Part shown: positions 441 through 45,396 of the stretch, piece after piece | How positions within the stretch are numbered: position 1 is the stretch's first letter | How the letters are laid out: every line of letters begins with the position of its first letter | Source of the DNA: Escherichia phage A7_1 | Length of the DNA: 64,000 nucleotides | Reading direction: 5' to 3' (one strand) | Sequence record: OP795442 | The notes under the pieces: model-generated | What the model saw: only the letters and a program-made list of their open reading frames with translations | The model's database searches: none | Told to the model about the DNA's origin: nothing | Program-made: the position numbers and the translations under genes

Positions 441-560
441 TTTTAACTCCTCGTCGTTTGTATGTGCTAACTATACGAGAACTTGAGGGGAAGATCAATA
501 CTTGATTTGCATTTTATTTTCATTATACTGTGCACATCTAAAACGAGAAGGAGATAACAA

Positions 561-1124
561 ATGAGTCAAGATAAAGAGTTAGCCATTGCGATATCCGTAG
601 CTGCTTCTGCCCATGTTGACCAAGTAGATAAAGGGGGGAATATCTATATTCTTCATCCTTTGCAGGTGATGCAAACATTGCAGCAAAAGGGAAGGGGAGA
701 TTTAATGGCAGCAGGAGTTTTGCATGATGTGATTGAAGATACTGAAATCACTATGGAACACCTCTTTAAAAAGGGGATTTCAGAAAGAACCTTAGTGATT
801 GTCGATGCAGTGACAAAGAAACGTAAGCAATCTTCATCTGATTACCTAGAGGGGATTTTAGAGAGTGAGGGTGCTTGTCATGTTAAGCTTGCGGATCTTA
901 AACACAACTTAGATATTCTGCGAACTTGTAGCACCACAGAAAAAGACTTGCAACGGGTCAGGAAGTATGTAACAATGCACTTGTTGATTACGGAGATGGT
1001 TGATTGGTATGAAAGTATCGGAAGGTATCTCGATTATTGTGATTCTTTTGCCTATTCTAGCTATCTCGACGAACGTAAAGAATTTGTTCAGAAACTTATT
1101 AAAAAATGGAAGGAGTTTAAATGA
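561..1124 (+). CDS. HD-domain protein, small alarmone ((p)ppGpp) hydrolase-like
   Basis: 187 aa; SD AAGGAG; motifs ..YILHPLQV.. and ..VLHDVIEDT.. match SpoT/Mesh1 hydrolase HD signature. Confidence 0.65.
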   Translation: MSQDKELAIAISVAASAHVDQVDKGGNIYILHPLQVMQTLQQKGRGDLMAAGVLHDVIEDTEITMEHLFKKGISERTLVIVDAVTKKRKQSSSDYLEGILESEGACHVKLADLKHNLDILRTCSTTEKDLQRVRKYVTMHLLITEMVDWYESIGRYLDYCDSFAYSSYLDERKEFVQKLIKKWKEFK

Positions 1125-1654
1125 AAAAGGTATTGAGTATTGAGCCGTTCACAACAACATACTTTGACGATTTGGAACGTCATGGTGATTATGGGGTACA
1201 AGACGCTGATGGTTGGAAAGAATTCCCTGAAGAAACAAAAGGTGACATTACAAAGCTCGGTTGTAAGATCAATGGATCTGAACCAAAAGGTGTTTACACC
1301 ATGTTTTCTTTCCTTGAAGCTATGAACCCAACGTACAAGGGAGATCGGCAATTTGGTTTTTCTTTTGCATCATTCCTTACTTGTAGCTGTGGTCATGGGG
1401 GTTGTGCAGGCTATCATGATAATGTGGTTATTCGACGTAAAAAGAATACCGTGATGGTCATGGGTAAAAAGGGAGATGGTTATGACGAAGGTGTTGTATT
1501 GACAGGTGAATCTGTTGTATACTTCGATAAAAAGCAGTGGGACGGTGTTCTAGAACACTACCTTAAACTCTTCAAAGAAAATCCTGATGGTGTTTTTGAA
1601 GATGCGGGTTTTATGTTTACTGGTCGTTGGGGGACTAAAAATTTTTCAAAATAA
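1121..1654 (+). CDS. hypothetical protein
   Basis: 177 aa ORF, SD GGAGG, start overlaps upstream stop. Confidence 0.6.
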   Translation: MKKVLSIEPFTTTYFDDLERHGDYGVQDADGWKEFPEETKGDITKLGCKINGSEPKGVYTMFSFLEAMNPTYKGDRQFGFSFASFLTCSCGHGGCAGYHDNVVIRRKKNTVMVMGKKGDGYDEGVVLTGESVVYFDKKQWDGVLEHYLKLFKENPDGVFEDAGFMFTGRWGTKNFSK

Positions 1655-2992: not shown

Positions 2993-3017
2993 CATCTCGA
3001 AAGAGGTGTCCTTTTTT
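2993..3017 (+). terminator. rho-independent terminator (GAAA tetraloop hairpin + T6)
   Basis: CATCTC-GAAA-GAGGTG stem-loop followed by TCCTTTTTT. Confidence 0.55.
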
Positions 3018-3029
3018 AATTTGGAGAAA

Positions 3030-3524
3030 ATGATGGATTTCATAAAAGAAGGATTTTCTTTCGACCCCCTTGCAAAGTTTCTACTAAGGAGAAATGGAAG
3101 AGAAGTAGGGAATGTAGTAAAGAATCATAAAGGTTATGATAAAGACTATGTACGTGTAACATGGTCAAGGGAAAGGAAAAGAAAATCTGCGTATGCTCAC
3201 AGGATCATTTGGGAATTGCATTATGGCAAGATACCTGATGGTTATTGTATAGACCACATAAATGGAGATGGTTTGGATAACAGGATTGAAAACTTAAGAT
3301 TGGCAACTAAGAGTCAGAATGGTCAAAACAGGAAAAACAACAAGAATAAAAAGGATGGTCTTCCTAAAGGTGTAGTTATGAATCATGGAAAATACACAGG
3401 AAGGGTCTATGTAAATGGAAAAAGGTTACAGAAAATTAGTTCCGACCTTGACGAAATAGTCAATTGGTTGGAGAATAAACGTAAAGAAAATCACGGTGTG
3501 TTCATGAACAATGGAGAACAATAA
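3030..3524 (+). CDS. HNH homing endonuclease
   Basis: motif HRIIWELHYGKIP..IDHINGDGLDNRIENLR (HNH with AP2-like tail); ATG 3030 with GGAG SD; track start 3006 is GTG inside terminator. Confidence 0.75.
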   Translation: MMDFIKEGFSFDPLAKFLLRRNGREVGNVVKNHKGYDKDYVRVTWSRERKRKSAYAHRIIWELHYGKIPDGYCIDHINGDGLDNRIENLRLATKSQNGQNRKNNKNKKDGLPKGVVMNHGKYTGRVYVNGKRLQKISSDLDEIVNWLENKRKENHGVFMNNGEQ

Positions 3525-5062
3525 TGTCAAAAATTAGTCAAGAAGAAAAAGATATGATCGAAATGCAAGTCTTCGAAGCTGAACGTATTATTGAAGCTGC
3601 AAGTCTTCAACTTATGCGCTTCAAAGCGTTCTACGGGGTTATGCTTTCGTCTATGCCTGTTAAAAAGGCGACGGAGTGGTGTAGTACAATGGCGACTGAT
3701 GGACGTAACCTGTATTACCATCCAGAGTTCGTTGCAGGTATGACAGAAGAACGTAAAAAATTGGTACTTGAGCGACTTTCCAAATCTGAGAAAGATCCTA
3801 AAAAGCTGAAAGAGGGTATTGAGTTTATCAATGTCTTCTATCGTCGAAAGACTGCTCGTGAGCTTGCTCTTATTCTTGAGCACGAATGCGATCATGTGAT
3901 CTCTGATCACGCTTCTCGTGGTAAAGGGTTTAATCATGAGCTTTACAATATTGCAGCGGATCATCGTATCAATACAACGGCTGTGCTTATTCACCAGAAA
4001 GGGGATGAGCTAGGTAAAGCCTGGTTCCCTGCCGGAGAGAGAACGGTATTTGATAAAAATGCTGAATTTGGATTTATGGCCTGGTCTTACTGTGATTTCC
4101 GATTCAAAGATATGTATACTGAGCAGATCTATGAAATCCTGAATAAAGAGCAAGATGATAAAGAAAAATCCAAAGGGAAAGGTTCTGGTTCTGGAAGTGG
4201 AGAGGGTGATGGTGAAGAAGGTGGTCAAGGTCGTAAAGGTGTTGATCAACACATGGATCAGAATGGTGATCCAGAAGATTCAGAAGGTGATGATATCGAA
4301 GATGCACTGGGAATCGACCGTAAAGCGAAGCCTAAGCAAACAGCAGAGGAACGCCAGTATAACGATGGGGTTATGCGTCGAGCCATTGAGAATGCCGTAC
4401 AGGCAGCAGGAAGCGGTGCACCGGAAGATGCTCGTCGTTTTGTAGAAGCGGCGGGTAAACCAAAGATTAATTATCTTCGTTTGTTGCGTAAAACTATTGA
4501 ACGTCTGTTCAAAGATGATGTATCATATCGTCGTTTGTCACGCCGTAGTCACTCGTTAACTCGGACTCTTCGTGGCTCGGGTTACTTATCTGGACGACAG
4601 ACGATTGGTTTACCCTCAAAGAATAAACAGAAGACTATTCGTGCAGGTGTCTTCTTCGACGTATCTGGATCATTTAACGATGATCTGTTAAGACCAACAA
4701 TGCGTGAGATTCGTGGATTGTGTAATCTTTACGATGAGTTTGAAGTTACAATGGCTTGCTGGTCAACAAAGGTTGGTAACATTGAAACGTATACGAAGAA
4801 GAATGTGAATGAGATTGCTAACTACAAGATCAAGACCACATTTGGTACGGATGTTTCTTGTGTGTTCGAGGCATTAGATGAAATGAAAGACCCTATGGAT
4901 CAGATCATCATCTACACTGACGGTTACTTTGCTGATGTATCCCAAAAGAAAGATTGGGCCAAAAAGTATGGTAAGAATGTTCTTTGGATTATCCTGGGTC
5001 GTGGGTCTTCGTTCACCCCGCCTTTTGGCAAGGCAATTGATTTTGACAAGTATCTTAAATAA
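3524..5062 (+). CDS. von Willebrand factor A domain protein (CobT/ViaA-like partner of the ATPase)
   Basis: 512 aa; MIDAS-like FFDVSGSFND; acidic Gly/Ser-rich linker. Confidence 0.7.
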   Translation: MSKISQEEKDMIEMQVFEAERIIEAASLQLMRFKAFYGVMLSSMPVKKATEWCSTMATDGRNLYYHPEFVAGMTEERKKLVLERLSKSEKDPKKLKEGIEFINVFYRRKTARELALILEHECDHVISDHASRGKGFNHELYNIAADHRINTTAVLIHQKGDELGKAWFPAGERTVFDKNAEFGFMAWSYCDFRFKDMYTEQIYEILNKEQDDKEKSKGKGSGSGSGEGDGEEGGQGRKGVDQHMDQNGDPEDSEGDDIEDALGIDRKAKPKQTAEERQYNDGVMRRAIENAVQAAGSGAPEDARRFVEAAGKPKINYLRLLRKTIERLFKDDVSYRRLSRRSHSLTRTLRGSGYLSGRQTIGLPSKNKQKTIRAGVFFDVSGSFNDDLLRPTMREIRGLCNLYDEFEVTMACWSTKVGNIETYTKKNVNEIANYKIKTTFGTDVSCVFEALDEMKDPMDQIIIYTDGYFADVSQKKDWAKKYGKNVLWIILGRGSSFTPPFGKAIDFDKYLK

Positions 5063-40370: not shown

Positions 40371-40859
40371 TTATGGGCAACACCGTGGAGATCTTCCACA
40401 GAAGAATTGCCAATTGGTTTCTGAATCTTTGTGGTTTACAAAACCTATCCTTCCGCACCCTTTCCCACTACAAACCGCTTCACGAGGATGATAGTCTATA
40501 CTGCAAGAGTGGGGATGATCAAATGCCTCCTGTATTTCAACACAGAGTCTACTTAACCAAGCGAACATTTTTGGCATAGAAGCTTCAAGGAGTTTAAGTT
40601 CATCGACCGTAGGTTTGTCTTTCTCCATGAAGAAGTCATTTATCTCGGAAAACAAAATCACGTTTTGAACTATACCGCTGCTTACCTTGTAAGAGAACTC
40701 CTCAGTAAGTCTCACAGTAACTTCCTCTATCAATTCTTTTTCATTATCTTGATCTTTTGCTAATCTTTCTTCAATCCATCGGATAACGAAGAATCTTTCT
40801 CTCTGAACATCCATGTTCAAAGTATTGATTATTTTTTCATAGATTAGGTTTCCTTCCAT
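40371..40859 (-). CDS. hypothetical protein with C-terminal Cys cluster (PTVDELKLLEASMP motif)
   Basis: 162 aa ORF. Confidence 0.5.
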   Translation of the reverse strand: MEGNLIYEKIINTLNMDVQRERFFVIRWIEERLAKDQDNEKELIEEVTVRLTEEFSYKVSSGIVQNVILFSEINDFFMEKDKPTVDELKLLEASMPKMFAWLSRLCVEIQEAFDHPHSCSIDYHPREAVCSGKGCGRIGFVNHKDSETNWQFFCGRSPRCCP

Positions 40860-41971
40860 ACCTTGTCTTGTGCCTCCAGGATAAGTTTTTCAACAATCTT
40901 CAGATCTGTTTTCTTTGGTAAGCTCGATTGCTTATAAAGAACATCTGTGATCATTTTATCTTTTTCTTCAGCCCACTCAACAATTTCTTCATAGCGGTAT
41001 TCACCATTTCGGATTGCGAGGAGTTCTTCAGCGTCTGGTCGATTCACTAAAACTTTACCTTCTGTGAGGATTTCTTCACCCATCCGAAGAAGCCGGACCA
41101 AATGCATAGCATGTTTAGTGTCGTAACCGAACTTCTCTTCCAGTTCATGACGCTTCTCGTTACGATTCTTAACCCACTCCCAGTAGTTGTGGTGTTTCTC
41201 CTTGGCCCATTTATGATCGTCAGCACAATACTTAACAATCATCAGAGTCTTGCCTCTTTTAACTTCCTCTGGGATTTCTTCATAGTCTAGCTTACGGATA
41301 GAACCATCTTTATTAAACATTGGTTGAACATCTTCACTACGATCTTCTACAACACCGTAAATGTTACCACCGTAAGGAACCAAAGTACAGAAGCCTTCCA
41401 TGTTTTTAAATTTACGAACAAAGTCTTCGTACTTCAACTCACCTTCTCCGAGATAGCTCTGCACCAGACGGAAATAGTCAAATTGAGTTGGTGGCTCTTT
41501 TGGTTGCGGATTATTAATGTGTTTGTTGTGACCCTTGATCCGCTTTAACTGAGACATTGCATAACCACTGAAGCGAAATGCAACTTCACGAGACAGTAAG
41601 GAGTAGAAATGTTCTTTCATCTCTTTCCAAGCTTCGTGCTCGTACAATGTGGCTTTCGGATCAGTAAAACCCAGTTCAATGATATTTGGGTTCATCTTCG
41701 AAAACAGTTGAAGGAAAGTTCCCAATTCGTAGATCTTGGCATCCTCTTCACCAGGGATGTTTAATTCAGTAACCTCTTTGAATGGGGTACGAACCACATT
41801 TGGGGTTGCAACAAAAACCCCACGGATATCAATATCACTACCTTCGTTATTCGTACCATACGCATGAGATCCTGCCAGACTCAACATCAGTACCTTCGCT
41901 ACGTCTGGATGCTTTTCCATCTTCTCTACGATACTTTTTACCTTTCCAGCACTCACAACTGAATTTTCCAT
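40844..41971 (-). CDS. Pol-beta superfamily nucleotidyltransferase
   Basis: 375 aa; G-S-x9-D-I-D-I motif (LAGSHAYGTNNEGSDIDIRGVFV). Confidence 0.6.
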   Translation of the reverse strand: MENSVVSAGKVKSIVEKMEKHPDVAKVLMLSLAGSHAYGTNNEGSDIDIRGVFVATPNVVRTPFKEVTELNIPGEEDAKIYELGTFLQLFSKMNPNIIELGFTDPKATLYEHEAWKEMKEHFYSLLSREVAFRFSGYAMSQLKRIKGHNKHINNPQPKEPPTQFDYFRLVQSYLGEGELKYEDFVRKFKNMEGFCTLVPYGGNIYGVVEDRSEDVQPMFNKDGSIRKLDYEEIPEEVKRGKTLMIVKYCADDHKWAKEKHHNYWEWVKNRNEKRHELEEKFGYDTKHAMHLVRLLRMGEEILTEGKVLVNRPDAEELLAIRNGEYRYEEIVEWAEEKDKMITDVLYKQSSLPKKTDLKIVEKLILEAQDKVWKET

Positions 41972-42061
41972 TTATCCTCCAATCATGTAAGTCACACAAG
42001 CCAACCCAGTTGGCCTGTTTAATCTTTATAAAGTTTACGCAGCTTGTGCAATCTTTTTTAT

Positions 42062-42457
42062 TTATAGGCATTTCACACCATAAATGATCATCAACACAAC
42101 AAGTGTCAACGTATAAAAGAAGCTCCCGTAAAGTCCATAACTGGTAATTTTAAGCTTTTTCTTAAAGCACATCATTGTACTATAAATTACACCAGTCCAG
42201 TGAATCACTAAAATCGCGGTGGCAATATCTGAAACATTACCCGCCCAAAGCATCAGAGAGTATGAGAGGTACATTGCAAAACCTGATAGCAAGAATGTAA
42301 ACAAATAACCAATTACACTTTTCTTTTTCTGATCTACGATTTTATTTTTCATGGTATCGATATTCAGATTGTAGTAGGCAACCACCACCATCTGGATAAT
42401 CAACCCCAGGATAAAGAAAGAGATCAGTGTAACGTATTCAAAAATTGGTGCAGTCAT
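42062..42457 (-). CDS. hypothetical membrane protein (about 4 helices)
   Basis: 131 aa, hydrophobic throughout. Confidence 0.55.
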   Translation of the reverse strand: MTAPIFEYVTLISFFILGLIIQMVVVAYYNLNIDTMKNKIVDQKKKSVIGYLFTFLLSGFAMYLSYSLMLWAGNVSDIATAILVIHWTGVIYSTMMCFKKKLKITSYGLYGSFFYTLTLVVLMIIYGVKCL

Positions 42458-42855
42458 TATAATTTCTCCTCAATAATTTCAGAAATGAGATTCGAGATCT
42501 CGAAAGTTTCTAACTCTTCGACGTGTGACAAGCGCCGGAGGCGCTCGATAACAAAGTCTTTCTTCACAAACACATCCGACAGATGCTCAATGTCCTGCTT
42601 ACCACGCATTCCGCTAACCAACTGCTTGTATCGGATGAGTTCAATATACTCTTCTTTGGACATTACTGTCAAGCGTTCATCTGCACAAATATGCAAAAAT
42701 ACTTGCTTGCTGTCCCAGTCGAACCCATTGTGCACTGCTTCTACTTCACGGTGAGGTGTCCCGCCAATTGTTACATGACCAACCTCAACGGGGATAGATA
42801 CCTGATCATCAGGTCGGCACTGCTGCAACTCCTCAATCAATTCAGATACTTTCAT
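42457..42855 (-). CDS. hypothetical protein
   Basis: 132 aa ORF. Confidence 0.55.
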   Translation of the reverse strand: MKVSELIEELQQCRPDDQVSIPVEVGHVTIGGTPHREVEAVHNGFDWDSKQVFLHICADERLTVMSKEEYIELIRYKQLVSGMRGKQDIEHLSDVFVKKDFVIERLRRLSHVEELETFEISNLISEIIEEKL

Positions 42856-42857
42856 AG

Positions 42858-43313
42858 TTACCCCTGTTTAAGCTTAAAAGATTTAAAGGCTTCGATAAAG
42901 TCCATTTCTTTTTGCGTGTATTTGTGGTCAATTGTATCAGCGAAAAGAGGGCAACGACCATCAACCAACTTCACATCCCACAGATGTTGAGGGAGAATAA
43001 ATGCAATGGCTGTAAGTGCACCATTCAAAGAATCATTCTCCTCGCAGAAAAATGCGTAAGGAATCTTCTCTATGTTTGGAGCTAAAAATCCTTCTGCAAA
43101 ATTAAGCATCTTAGATTGATAGCCTCCGTTCAACAAGATCATTGTTTGGTCTTTGCTTTGCCACTGATCTACAAGGTTGTATCTGTCATCATATCGATCG
43201 GCATAGGCAAAGCCATAATGACCTACAAGGTTTGCTGCTGCATGTGCTGCTTGGATACCTGCTTGGATTCCCATCATGTAGCTGTTTACCAATACGTACA
43301 TCCGAGTTTTCAA
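42858..43313 (-). CDS. hypothetical protein, possibly peptidyl-tRNA hydrolase (Pth2)-like
   Basis: 151 aa; N-terminal VLVNSYMMGIQAGIQAAHAA resembles Pth2 core; low-confidence function. Confidence 0.5.
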   Translation of the reverse strand: MKTRMYVLVNSYMMGIQAGIQAAHAAANLVGHYGFAYADRYDDRYNLVDQWQSKDQTMILLNGGYQSKMLNFAEGFLAPNIEKIPYAFFCEENDSLNGALTAIAFILPQHLWDVKLVDGRCPLFADTIDHKYTQKEMDFIEAFKSFKLKQG

Positions 43314-43630
43314 TTCTTACCTCCGAAAATTCTTTTTGCAAATTTTTCATTACCTAACGTCATGTTGTAGAAAACTATAATTGAATAGACAATCCACGCA
43401 AGGACATAAAATAAAATCAAGAAAGGCCAGCCCACAAACCAAAACACTGTCATTATTAACCAGCCCGTCATAAGGAGTTTATAATTAACATTCCCGTGAT
43501 TTAAAGGGTCAAGTAAGTTACTGTTCTCTGGCAGGGTGATACGAAACCCACCTTGACGAAGCTTGATCAAAAAGAACCAAGCAGCAGAACTTATAATGCA
43601 ACATAAAATATATATCAGTAATCCTGTCAT
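43310..43630 (-). CDS. hypothetical membrane protein, tandem paralogue A
   Basis: 106 aa; shares FLIKLRQ.GF..P and helix layout with 43627..43956. Confidence 0.55.
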   Translation of the reverse strand: MTGLLIYILCCIISSAAWFFLIKLRQGGFRITLPENSNLLDPLNHGNVNYKLLMTGWLIMTVFWFVGWPFLILFYVLAWIVYSIIVFYNMTLGNEKFAKRIFGGKN

Positions 43631-43956
43631 TTTTTAACTCCGAAGATCTTAGATAGTAATTTATCATTCCCGATAGTTACACCACAAAAACTTTTTACTC
43701 CGTATACTAGATACGACCCGATTGTAACACAGATAATGATCGGATAAACAAGATACCAAAAGAATGTTGCAAGTATCCACCCTGCCATCACCATACGTAA
43801 ATTTACATTTTCGTTATTCAGTGGCTCCAGGATATAAATATCCTCACAATCTTTTGGGAAGGGGATGTTAAAACCCTTCTGTCGTAATTTGATCAGTAAG
43901 AACCAAAGCGGGCAACTGATAAAACAACCGATCAAATAACCTTCAACCATTTTCAC
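43627..43956 (-). CDS. hypothetical membrane protein, tandem paralogue B
   Basis: 109 aa; paralogue of 43310..43630. Confidence 0.55.
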   Translation of the reverse strand: MKMVEGYLIGCFISCPLWFLLIKLRQKGFNIPFPKDCEDIYILEPLNNENVNLRMVMAGWILATFFWYLVYPIIICVTIGSYLVYGVKSFCGVTIGNDKLLSKIFGVKK

Positions 43957-45193
43957 TCTCCTTCAATTTGTCAAGATATTGTGTAACGTATCTTACTTTT
44001 ACATTTCGGATTCTATTCTTGATCTCTTCTGGACGTCCAGCAAATCTTTCAGAGATCTCTTTACTTTCTTTTGAGATTGCAACGCTGTTTTGAACAATCC
44101 CCGCCAGTGCTGAGAATAATACCAAAGGTTGAGTGTAGCTGTCAAACATTTTTTCAGGACCCCGACCACGAGCATCACAGATGCAAGCATCAATAAATTC
44201 AGAGAGGAATGCTTGGTCCTTTTCACCACGTAAGGCTACTAACAAGTCATAAACTTTCTTTGGCTTCATTTCTTTGATACGGTGAAGTCGTGTATGATGC
44301 TCAGTTACAGCTAAAGCCAACTTCTTCCAATTATTGGGGACACCAAAGCGATCACAAACTTGTTCAGTTAACTTGATACCATGTTCTTCGTGACCGTGCA
44401 GTTTACCCGTTACCCAATAAATACATTTACCTAAGTCGTGACACAGAACTGCCCACTTCACAGCTTCACTTGCACGAGTCGCCTGGGCATAATCCATGCA
44501 AAGTAAAGTGTGAACAAATGCATCACCTTCAGGATGGTGCTCCTTGGGTTGAACAACATCGTATAAATCCACAAGCTCAGGAAATTCCCCCAGTTGAGTC
44601 AACATACGGATCATTACCGAAGGTTTATTCATTTCTGACTGATCACTAAAGCATTTCTTAATCTCTGCAAATTTACGCTCTTTTGGTAATGCACTTAAAT
44701 CAACATCCTTGCACATTCCCCAAGTGTCAGGATCAATTGTAAACTCGCCTCCGTATCTGGCATGTAATCTGGCTAATCGATATACACGTAAAGGGTCTTC
44801 GATAAATGCCTTAATAGATACACAACGTAACCGACGAAGTTCAATATCAAGTGCACCACCGCAAGGGTCAATAATTTCACCCGTAGAAATATCCTTAGCG
44901 ATCGCATTAATGGTCAAATCTCTTCGCATCAGGTCTTGTTCGATTGTAACGTCTGGAGAGAACACAACTTCGAAGTCGTGATAACCAGGACCTGTTGATC
45001 TTTCTGTCCGAGCAAGAGCATACTCTTCCTTTGTCTCGGGGTGAAGGTACACAGGGAAAGCTGCACCAACCTTAGTAAATCCCTTCTCAATCATTTCTTC
45101 ATGGGTCGCTCCAACTACAACGTAGTCACGATCCTTGCTTTCAACACTCATTAGTTCATCGCGAACTGCACCACCTACCAAGTAAACTTTCAT
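43943..45193 (-). CDS. cca: CCA-adding tRNA nucleotidyltransferase with HD domain
   Basis: MKVYLVGGAVRD..DRD..YALARTER..RRDLTINA..DPLRV..CHDLGK closely follows E. coli Cca; ATG 45193 after AAGGA. Confidence 0.85.
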   Translation of the reverse strand: MKVYLVGGAVRDELMSVESKDRDYVVVGATHEEMIEKGFTKVGAAFPVYLHPETKEEYALARTERSTGPGYHDFEVVFSPDVTIEQDLMRRDLTINAIAKDISTGEIIDPCGGALDIELRRLRCVSIKAFIEDPLRVYRLARLHARYGGEFTIDPDTWGMCKDVDLSALPKERKFAEIKKCFSDQSEMNKPSVMIRMLTQLGEFPELVDLYDVVQPKEHHPEGDAFVHTLLCMDYAQATRASEAVKWAVLCHDLGKCIYWVTGKLHGHEEHGIKLTEQVCDRFGVPNNWKKLALAVTEHHTRLHRIKEMKPKKVYDLLVALRGEKDQAFLSEFIDACICDARGRGPEKMFDSYTQPLVLFSALAGIVQNSVAISKESKEISERFAGRPEEIKNRIRNVKVRYVTQYLDKLKESENG

Positions 45194-45231
45194 TCCTTCT
45201 TCTTCCATTCTTTCCAATTCTGCATGCCCGC

Positions 45232-45396
45232 TCATAGCCATCCCCTTTCTTTATACCCTTTTGTAAATCCTGATTCCCAATCTTGAAATTGCTCCGGCAT
45301 GGTGTTTGGATTATACGGGTTGTTTCTCTTGAACATCCCAAACTTGAATCCAGCGGCTCGGCCCTTCTCGTATGCTGAACTGCTTTTTCTTGTCAT
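45232..45396 (-). CDS. hypothetical small basic protein
   Basis: ATG 45396 after GAGGAG. Confidence 0.4.
   Translation of the reverse strand: MTRKSSSAYEKGRAAGFKFGMFKRNNPYNPNTMPEQFQDWESGFTKGYKERGWL

Follow-up and report, generated by a model that had tools for sequence, protein, structure and literature searches.

The 64,000-nucleotide stretch of Escherichia phage A7_1 DNA analysed here (sequence record OP795442; hereafter the window) contains on its + strand, at 561..1124, an open reading frame that runs from an ATG to a TGA stop, the latter included in the end coordinate. It encodes exactly the 187-aa HD protein that the initial annotation had placed there as a small alarmone hydrolase-like protein (hereafter SAH). 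A Shine-Dalgarno-like GAAGGAG, read directly from the sequence at 549..555 (+), lies 5 nt 5′ of the ATG; the gene is real and its ribosome-binding site a good one. Within the divergent intergenic region of 120 bp there are both a sigma-70-like promoter candidate (TTGATT-16-TATACT, 9/12; 502..529, +) and a mirror candidate facing the leftward gene (498-470, −). The 6 promoter-like sites in the region are, however, no excess over the 4.5 ± 2.0 expected from shuffled sequence, and we therefore do not take the candidates as support for early SAH expression.

The window and Escherichia phage A5-4, a lytic myovirus of the Vequintavirinae, show 99.0% identity over 6 kb, and the relative UPEC06 is classified in the same subfamily, which bears out the lytic setting assumed earlier. 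Close relatives that carry the SAH gene are A5-4, A73, W70, UPEC06 and LTH01, where it is annotated as a "GTP pyrophosphokinase" (UPEC06) or a "hypothetical protein" (the other four); these labels are wrong or uninformative and could be replaced. Both A5-4 and A73 come from isolations on K-12. SAH homologues were found in 283-347 phage records.

The upstream neighbor of SAH belongs to phrog_13698, with no assigned function and no Pfam match. The downstream gene (1121..1654, +), which encodes a 177-aa phrog_8242 protein with an invariant TCSCGHGGCAGYH motif, begins with an ATG that overlaps the SAH stop codon (ATGA), and because of this overlap it is probably co-translated with SAH. Its product is 57% identical to CR8_114, and a word-indexed search returned only 2 homologues. 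We considered this protein as a partner or hidden toxin of SAH; it has 0 Pfam matches and a PHROG without assigned function, and its AF2 model (pLDDT 59.8, with residues 69-121 below 50) was unusable. No tRNA genes, sought as support for a tRNA-centred role, were found within the 64-kb window.

Pfam PF13328 (HD_4) matches SAH with 30.7 bits against a curated cut-off of 27.2, PHROG 990 ("metal-dependent phosphohydrolase") does so with E 1.3e-51, and the match to TIGR00691 (spoT_relA) is confined to the N-terminal hydrolase part of that model (positions 1-85 of 687). No synthetase, TGS or ACT domain was found in the 187 aa, for which Pfam gave only HD_4 and a weak generic HD match, in keeping with the earlier description of a stand-alone hydrolase lacking a synthetase part. 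By its sequence, SAH is a single-domain RelA/SpoT-type HD hydrolase, with a signal far beyond chance.

The H..HPL and LHDVIEDT motifs on which the initial annotation was built are indeed present, as A-H18...I-L-H32-P-L and L54-H55-D56-V-I-E59-D60-T61, and the codons of the latter could be read directly as CAT GAT at 723-728 (H55-D56) and GAA GAT at 735-740 (E59-D60). They lie in an N-terminal active-site segment (612..740, +) that comprises H18 (612-614), D23 (627-629, equivalent to the Aph1 specificity residue D24), K24, H32 (654-656), H55-D56 and E59-D60. A C-terminal segment (894..968, +) combining active-site and Aph-signature residues was assigned by pairwise alignment to 7SMG, whose numbering agrees with that used for the key residues in the publication on Aph1. 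It contains D112 (894-896), N116 (906-908), D118 (912-914, Aph1 D116), R121 (921-923, Aph1 R119) and K135-Y136 (963-968, Aph1 K133-Y134). H32, H55, D56, E59, D60, D112 and N116 are all intact in SAH and invariant both in 43/43 aligned relatives and in 150/150 of the best-matching representatives out of 1.84 billion, so that the catalytic His and Asp residues are conserved on alignment.

Both the sequence and the predicted structure place SAH nearest to Aph1, the founding (p)ppApp-specific hydrolase, and not to SpoT or MESH1, so the SpoT/Mesh1-type (p)ppGpp hydrolase label of the initial annotation has to be revised. The top sequence match in the PDB is Aph1 itself (7SMG, E 1.4e-21, aa 8-143), whereas Rel and SpoT reach about 1e-11, in most cases with an alignment limited to the N-terminal motif, and the values for MESH1 are 7e-8 to 7e-7. 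AlphaFold2 predicted a structure for SAH with a pLDDT of 92.8 and a pTM of 0.89, and in a Foldseek search with that model the four 7SMG chains rank first (TMt 0.89-0.92, rmsd 1.3-1.6 Å, 33-34% identity), compared with a TMt of 0.67, an rmsd of 3.7 Å and 24-26% identity for MESH1. The MESH1, SpoT and Rel domains and PaSAH do have the fold of the HD superfamily and the H...HD...ED...D...N set of catalytic residues in common with SAH, but as a group they are much further from it (E 1e-11 to 1e-6; TMt 0.19-0.74, rmsd 3-15 Å) and show no detectable similarity to its C-terminal half. That half is informative, since the Aph family was defined via an HD-less C-terminal region (Aph1 Y90-E143) that separates it from the (p)ppGpp hydrolases (Ahmad et al., PNAS 2023, PMC10083569). 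When SAH aa 90-150 alone were searched against the PDB, 7SMG (E 9.9e-5) was the sole RSH hydrolase to appear at E<=10.

The same authors described a six-residue Aph signature (D24, R96, D116, R119, K133 and Y134; PMC10083569). SAH residues D23, D118, R121, K135 and Y136 align to Aph1 D24, D116, R119, K133 and Y134, so that five of the six are common to the two proteins, including the D24 and R119 that set (p)ppApp specificity. Rel enzymes, in contrast, have R, R and K where SAH has D23, D118 and R121, with the Arg at the D23 position lying in a YRKSG context, and the guanine-binding R43/R44/S45 of TtRel become D23/K24/G25 in SAH. The exception is R96, which is distal from the active site and is replaced by Gly98 in SAH, in the PVP-SE1 and CR8 proteins and in the whole Vequintavirinae clade; Arg occupies this position in 26/43 relatives and in 91/150 of the best representatives. 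D23 is found in 39/43 relatives and, among the best 150 representatives of the 1.84 billion, in 143, with R121 and Y136 each present in 149; judged by these residues, the best 150 are uniformly Aph-type. Aph1 (from Bacteroides caccae) and SAH have the same metal-binding and catalytic residues and are both phage-borne, but their sequence identity is only 33-34%, and whereas Aph1 belongs to a temperate phage and provides immunity to the MuF-Apk2 toxin encoded next to it, SAH stands alone in a lytic phage.

The sole unusual feature of SAH is a rare helical extension of about 40 aa at its C-terminus (aa 145-187; 993..1121, +), delimited from the secondary structure of the model and missing from Aph1. 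In the AF2 model the last core helix is prolonged (127-157) and followed by an extra helix (aa 162-186). The extension is common to CR8_111 and P0002, but among the best 150 representatives the match reaches query aa ~177-181 in only 3, and PVP-SE1 gp220 stops near query aa 154. Aph1 was described as a compact eight-helix protein, and its tetramer reportedly depends on the absence of a C-terminal helix 9 (PMC10083569). The SAH model does not match that compact fold without helix 9, although its core superposes on Aph1 (TMt ~0.9), and because of the extra helix the quaternary structure of SAH probably differs from that of Aph1.

Among phage relatives, gp220 of PVP-SE1 is 47% identical to SAH over 154 aa (E 3e-44). 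Jimmy et al. (2020) found that the PVP-SE1 SAH, which they described as stand-alone and classed as PbcSpo, neutralises the CapRel, PhRel2, FaRel2, PhRel and FaRel toxins (5/5 toxic alarmone synthetases, or toxSAS, tested) in E. coli, and they proposed that phage SAHs bypass alarmone-based (toxSAS) defence. Because gp220 is the only RSH-HD gene in PVP-SE1, we take it to be the protein they assayed. As a proxy for PbcSpo membership of our SAH we use its 47% identity to this protein, in place of a subfamily phylogeny or HMM. Both proteins come from Vequintavirinae, stand alone in lytic phages, share a gene location a few genes 5′ of a MoxR-like ATPase, and have an identical D/G/D/R/K/Y pattern at the signature positions. 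They differ in that gp220 has 169 aa, is without the extra C-terminal helix and is preceded by a thymidylate kinase gene, whereas the SAH gene comes first in a block of its own and is probably coupled in translation to the phrog_8242 gene; no phrog_8242 homologue lies beside SAH in PVP-SE1 or SSE121, and the similar-sized downstream ORF of SSE121 is unrelated.

The position a few genes 5′ of the MoxR-like ATPase is kept in Certrevirus and Seunavirus phages. Cronobacter phage CR8 gp111 is 43% identical to SAH over its full length, including the C-terminal extension, and its gene occupies the same divergent-junction position; a phrog_8242 gene follows there too, but two small ORFs intervene where the window has a direct overlap. 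Like the other Certrevirus homologues, it is an uncharacterised "putative metal dependent phosphohydrolase".

Taken together with these analogies, the sequence and the model lead us to favor, with a probability of roughly 0.6, the reading that SAH is an Aph1/PbcSpo-type 3′-pyrophosphohydrolase that would remove the 3′-pyrophosphate added by toxSAS enzymes and so act in counter-defence. Hydrolysis of an adenosine 3′-pyrophosphate seems its most likely activity because SAH is nearest to Aph1, retains the signature residues and has a 47%-identical homologue that neutralises toxSAS. SAH would be a metal-dependent (Mn2+/Mg2+) 3′-pyrophosphohydrolase of the RelA/SpoT-homologue HD family that coordinates its metal through H32, H55, D56 and D112, activates water with E59/D60 and touches the ribose with N116. 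The base pocket, shaped by D23 and R121, would accept adenine and disfavor guanine, and a preference for (p)ppApp with little (p)ppGpp hydrolysis is predicted from five residues, chiefly these two. During infection, the enzyme would most likely remove 3′-pyrophosphate from ATP/ADP and from the last adenosine of the tRNA CCA end, placed there by toxSAS of the host or of a prophage, such as CapRel, or by (p)ppApp-making toxins; ATP pools and tRNA charging would then be restored and an abortive-infection defence defeated.

We infer the substrates of SAH and its role in infection from sequence comparison and by analogy to several characterised systems. MESH1 and ATfaRel remove the 3′-pyrophosphate from tRNA CCA ends and restore aminoacylation in vitro, and the toxicity rescue by the PVP-SE1 SAH suggests that it too may de-pyrophosphorylate tRNA. 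CapRelSJ46 protects E. coli against phages. In the literature we found no report of a phage SAH improving plating on a toxSAS-carrying host, and no published trial in which Vequintavirinae faced toxSAS defence or a phage SAH was assayed in the course of an infection. The possibility, raised in the initial annotation, that the protein degrades nucleotides made by defence systems agrees with the neutralisation data for the PVP-SE1 enzyme.

The other function proposed at the outset, collapse of the stringent response, would follow if SAH hydrolysed (p)ppGpp, lowering host ppGpp so that the response is prevented or reversed and transcription, translation and nucleotide synthesis remain high for the phage. 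Phages do gain from lower ppGpp, since according to a 2026 preprint the stringent response restricts infection and the T7 portal protein inhibits RelA/SpoT. (p)ppGpp is also the classical substrate of the RSH HD superfamily to which SAH belongs, and, although several databases name homologues "guanosine-3′,5′-bis(diphosphate) 3′-pyrophosphohydrolase", such names are automatic transfers and not tests. Several features make this reading unlikely to us: Asp23 stands where Rel has its guanine-stacking Arg, SAH has the Aph-specific Arg121, the C-terminal half matches Aph1 only, and in both sequence and fold MESH1, SpoT and Rel are far more remote from SAH than Aph1 is. Hydrolysis of ppGpp is undetectable with wild-type Aph1, which needed both D24R and R119A to gain it, and although 2/12 assayed Aph1 homologues showed modest ppGpp activity, 12/12 hydrolysed ppApp efficiently (PMC10083569). 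The collapse of the stringent response is accordingly disfavored. Strict adenine specificity of SAH is nevertheless not guaranteed, because those two homologues do cut ppGpp and because ATfaRel, classed as PbcSpo like the SAH of PVP-SE1, lowered ppGpp in cells and counteracts its accumulation there. (p)ppApp is a substrate of MESH1 and PaSAH too, and MESH1 in addition takes off the tRNA 3′-pyrophosphate.

That last activity is the center of a more specialised, tentative reading, which we likewise doubt, in which the pocket of SAH is tuned to tRNA A76 over free (p)ppApp and the protein is a tRNA 3′-end "de-pyrophosphorylase". It would then partner two nucleotidyltransferases of the phage, the CCA-adding tRNA nucleotidyltransferase (43943-45241) and an RlaP-type RNA-repair enzyme (40844-41971), in a set of enzymes that keeps tRNA ends intact when abortive infection of the CapRel type is triggered, with the C-terminal extension supplying tRNA or toxSAS contacts that are missing in the short Aph enzymes. 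Considerably less probable is that SAH acts mainly on some other 3′-phosphorylated metabolite, NADPH or one of the pGp/pAp/PAPS type, in nucleotide or cofactor economy. MESH1 is a documented NADPH phosphatase for which crystal structures with NADPH and with PAPS exist, and an "orphan" bacterial SAH is reported to be metabolically promiscuous (PMC9765508), but MESH1 is distant from SAH in the comparison given above and every tested member of the Aph1 family cuts ppApp efficiently (PMC10083569). The genomic setting can be read both ways: the window phage is rich in nucleotide metabolism (NrdA/B/D, ThyX, NT5C) and the SAH gene adjoins thymidylate kinase in Seunavirus and Mydovirus phages, but in the window phage and in CR8 it has no nucleotide-metabolism neighbors. 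We give least credence of all to the idea that SAH confers immunity to a (p)ppApp synthetase toxin of its own phage, as Aph1 does to the MuF-fused Apk2 of its Bacteroides prophage. Aph1, the closest characterised relative, does have such a role, and its gene lies directly downstream of the toxin gene in a temperate phage (PMC10083569), but the neighbors of SAH, phrog_13698 and phrog_8242, are not synthetases. Neither a RelA_SpoT synthetase (PF04607) nor MuF was found by Pfam among the 46 window ORFs of at least 128 aa, scanned as concatenated pseudo-proteins, with ~81 kb of the genome lying outside the window. A tblastn search of all phage records with the E. coli RelA synthetase domain (E<=1) gave 61 matches and 0 in Escherichia phages, a weak negative for the toxin in that the probe missed known mycobacteriophage toxSAS. 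With no adjacent RSH-type synthetase toxin in the window, we reject a pair of the Apk2-Aph1 type, and it weighs in the same direction that the PVP-SE1 enzyme is stand-alone (Jimmy et al., 2020) and that a MuF gene lies near only 0.4% of Aph homologues (PMC10083569).

Read as an Aph1/PbcSpo-type counter-defence enzyme, SAH is a well-supported yet unremarkable addition to an established class. The concept is not new, phage SAHs having been tested and discussed as counter-defence in 2020 (Jimmy et al.), and the find is less novel than the initial annotation implied. A lytic coliphage with an Aph-signature SAH encoded by a deletable gene is nonetheless a clean test case, in which two questions from the literature could be addressed: whether a phage SAH rescues infection from toxSAS, and whether Aph-type enzymes act on pyrophosphorylated tRNA besides (p)ppApp. 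If the predicted activity holds, SAH would be a natural counter-defence against toxSAS (CapRel and its relatives) and (p)ppApp-producing toxins, and this would account for its retention in most Vequintavirinae lineages except the rV5-type.

The initial annotation described the ORF at 561..1124(+) as a SpoT/Mesh1-type (p)ppGpp hydrolase of 187 residues in a lytic phage, which holds at the level of the family but proves imprecise on the subfamily and likely substrate: the nearest characterized relative is Aph1, the (p)ppApp-specific hydrolase of Bacteroides caccae (PDB 7SMG), and D23 and R121 follow it. The ORF runs from ATG to TGA exactly as claimed, with GAAGGAG (549-555, +) lying 5 nt 5′ of the ATG, and both of the H..HPL and LHDVIEDT motifs are there (H18; I-L-H32-P-L; L-H55-D56-V-I-E59-D60-T), the codons CAT GAT and GAA GAT being read directly at 723-728 and 735-740. 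Its family matches lie well beyond chance expectation: the Pfam HD_4 score is 30.7 bits (cut-off 27.2), PHROG 990 (“metal-dependent phosphohydrolase”) matches with E 1.3e-51, and NCBIfam spoT_relA aligns only over the first 85 of its 687 positions, which are the hydrolase part. Pfam/NCBIfam profile comparison revealed no synthetase, TGS or ACT region in the 187 residues, in keeping with a stand-alone small alarmone hydrolase (SAH).

Searching all PDB sequences, we found the best match in 7SMG, deposited as a “(p)ppApp hydrolase” (E 1.4e-21, query residues 8-143). Rel/SpoT enzymes came next at ~1e-11, for the most part aligned over the N-terminal motif region, and MESH1 scored 7e-8 to 7e-7. AlphaFold2 gave a confident model from 61 sequences (pLDDT 92.8, pTM 0.89), for which Foldseek against the PDB ranked the four 7SMG chains at the top (target-normalised TM 0.89-0.92, rmsd 1.3-1.6 Å, 33-34% identity), then MESH1 (TM 0.67, rmsd 3.7 Å), with SpoT, PaSAH, RelH and Rel below it.

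To tell Aph proteins apart from (p)ppGpp hydrolases, Ahmad et al. (2023) took as search probe the 53 C-terminal, HD-less residues of Aph1, and they defined a signature of six residues, D24, R96, D116, R119, K133 and Y134, of which all except R96 line the active site (PMC10083569). We re-applied the logic of both tests. When residues 90-150 alone were searched against the PDB at E<=10, the sole RSH hydrolase recovered was Aph1 (E 9.9e-5). In a HMMER alignment to 7SMG, whose numbering agrees with the paper’s D24, K25, A26, N114, D116, R119, K133 and Y134, the window protein carries D23, K24, G25, N116, D118, R121, K135 and Y136 at these positions; the sole unmatched signature residue is R96, which is Gly98 here and in the PVP-SE1 and CR8 phage homologues. 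Rel enzymes in the same search have Arg at the D23 site (YRKSG), and Arg and Lys at the D118 and R121 sites (NMRTLK), agreeing with the substitutions described in the Aph1 paper.

An exhaustive phmmer run against 1.84 billion cluster representatives returned 14,106 relatives at E<=1e-3 (3,383 at <=1e-10 but only 4 at <=1e-30). The catalytic residues survive the alignment, H32, H55, D56, E59, D60, D112 and N116 being present in 150/150 of the best of these 14,106. Among the same best 150, D23 is found in 143, R121 in 149 and the two together in 143; Y136 is found in 149; D118, found in 114, is replaced by Asn in 20, and K135, found in 109, by Arg in 24. As judged from sequence, these counts place the window protein firmly among Aph-type sequences.

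The C-terminus is its one non-standard feature. Aph1 is a compact eight-helix protein whose authors ascribe its tetramer to its lacking the C-terminal helix that dimeric SAHs have (PMC10083569). In our AlphaFold2 model the last core helix reaches residue 157 and is followed by an extra helix (162-186), which probably alters the oligomeric state. Cronobacter phage CR8 gp111 (43% identical over its full length, at the same divergent junction) and one further homologue (P0002) share this tail. The PVP-SE1 protein, gp220, stops near query residue 154, and of the 150 closest representatives (best 150 of 14,106) only 3 match through query residues ~177-181.

Escherichia phage A5-4 (145 kb) is 99.0% identical to the first 6 kb of the window, and LTH01, A73, UPEC06 and W70 are 94-97% identical to that stretch; UPEC06 is classified in the Vequintavirinae, a subfamily of lytic myoviruses, which bears out the lytic setting. 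Searches place homologues in 283-347 phage records, among them phages of Aeromonas, Klebsiella, Streptococcus, Pseudomonas, Cronobacter and Salmonella. The gene seems to be present in Seunavirus, Mydovirus, Certrevirus, Avunavirus-like and A5-4-like lineages and missing from rV5 proper, because our phage collection search found only 15 Escherichia phage records with a homologue; on assumed record numbers, far more would be expected if the well-sampled rV5-type Vequintavirus genus carried it. Public annotation across five records is wrong or empty: the UPEC06 gene (MW250786, 6561-7124) is a “GTP pyrophosphokinase”, which is wrong because it puts a synthetase name on a hydrolase-only protein, and the A5-4, A73, W70 and LTH01 copies are “hypothetical protein”. 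Phage genome papers nowadays routinely label such genes SAHs.

The SAH stop overlaps the start of a probably translationally coupled phrog_8242 gene (1121-1654, +, 177 aa; ATGA at 1121-1124) with an invariant Cys/His motif, TCSCGHGGCAGYH. This protein has only two homologues in a word-indexed search of 5.8 billion proteins, its counterpart in CR8 is CR8_114 (57% identity), and its structure is poorly predicted (pLDDT 59.8); in SSE121 the SAH gene is followed by an ORF of similar size that is unrelated to this protein. On the other side, a 120-bp intergenic region is common to the SAH gene and a divergent ORF matching phrog_13698 (3-440, −) that runs off the left end of the window and whose product has clustered Cys residues (CGYCG...GHCCVC) and a coiled-coil-like, acidic tail.

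Elsewhere in the window, an HNH_3 homing endonuclease gene (3006-3524, +; Pfam E 4.7e-22) is inserted between genes for a MoxR-like ATPase (1725-2954) and a DUF2201 metallopeptidase/VWA protein (3524-5062). It is present in A5-4 and, by annotation, absent from UPEC06. The match to LTH01, A73 and W70 is likewise in two pieces at 91-92%. The insertion looks like a recent homing event. Three adjacent ORFs of 234, 159 and 415 aa (29364-31818, −) with RCC1-like repeat/beta-propeller matches (PF25390, below the gathering score, and PF13540) may be one frameshift-split gene or else a protein family that is tail-associated or binds receptors. Between ~5400 and 29000 about 70 very short ORFs (45-140 aa) are densely packed, and the few ORFs of at least 128 aa there had no Pfam match. 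Phages of such size often carry tRNA genes; ARAGORN found none in the 64 kb.

An anti-toxSAS role, directed against toxic small alarmone synthetases, is not a new concept: a 2020 paper put it forward and tested it in part, using a protein 47% identical to ours from the same phage subfamily. Jimmy et al. assayed two “stand-alone phage-encoded SAHs”, one of PVP-SE1 (PbcSpo subfamily) and one of SSU5 (PaSpo), both Salmonella phages. Each SAH neutralised 5/5 toxSAS in E. coli (CapRel, PhRel2, FaRel2, PhRel and FaRel), and the authors proposed that such genes could let incoming phages evade alarmone-mediated defence (PMC7229694). Gene 220 (YP_004894027.1) is the sole RSH-type HD match in the genome of PVP-SE1, a Vequintavirinae phage; its product is 47% identical to the window protein in a 154-residue alignment (E 3e-44) and agrees with it at the signature positions, including Gly at the R96 site. 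The gene occupies the corresponding region, upstream of the MoxR-like ATPase gene by a few genes. Later work showed that four of the five toxSAS families tested do not produce alarmones, and CapRelSJ46 is a phage-triggered defence functional in E. coli.

The window protein thus combines an intact RSH HD active site with a fold and base pocket resembling those of Aph1, and it is homologous to a phage enzyme able to neutralise toxSAS toxins. We consider it most likely (probability about 0.6) that it would hydrolyse the 3′-pyrophosphate of adenosine nucleotides such as (p)ppApp, and probably also that of the terminal adenosine of pyrophosphorylated tRNA, allowing the phage to escape toxSAS abortive infection or (p)ppApp-producing toxins of competitors or prophages. 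Both substrates carry an adenosine 3′-pyrophosphate, which fits an adenine-selective pocket and the rescue of cells from both toxSAS classes by the Aph-signature PVP-SE1 enzyme. That it instead blunts the stringent response as a ppGpp hydrolase appears unlikely given D23 and R121: wild-type Aph1 has no detectable ppGpp hydrolysis, which the D24R+R119A double mutant gains (PMC10083569). Such a role is plausible in principle, since a 2026 preprint reports that the stringent response restricts phage and that T7 counters it; ATfaRel lowered ppGpp in cells, and 2/12 Aph homologues had modest ppGpp activity (PMC10083569).

Action on another 3′-phosphorylated metabolite, such as NADPH for MESH1, seems quite improbable, the sole contextual hint being linkage of the SAH gene to thymidylate kinase in Seunavirus. 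Immunity to a synthetase toxin of the phage itself, modeled on Aph1 and its adjacent MuF-Apk2 toxin, is highly improbable: neither the SAH neighbours nor any of the 46 window ORFs of at least 128 aa has a RelA_SpoT or MuF domain (~81 kb beyond the window lay outside this profile scan), and tblastn with a RelA domain, a probe insensitive to divergent toxSAS, matched no Escherichia phage record.

A cluster at 40844-45241(−) looks, by its domain matches, like RNA-end repair: it encodes an RlaP “RNA repair pathway” nucleotidyltransferase (40844-41971, −; PF10127, 1e-17), a phrog_3668 “hydrolase” (42858-43313, −) and a CCA-adding-type tRNA nucleotidyltransferase with a PolyA_pol head and an HD domain (43943-45241, −; phrog_2244, 5e-132). 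Speculatively, this cluster and an SAH that may strip tRNA 3′-pyrophosphate could form a tRNA 3′-end maintenance kit. In the literature we found no test of any phage SAH during real infection, nor of toxSAS defence against Vequintavirinae. For an anti-toxSAS role so far shown by co-expression only, the window SAH offers a tractable coliphage system for tests in infection.
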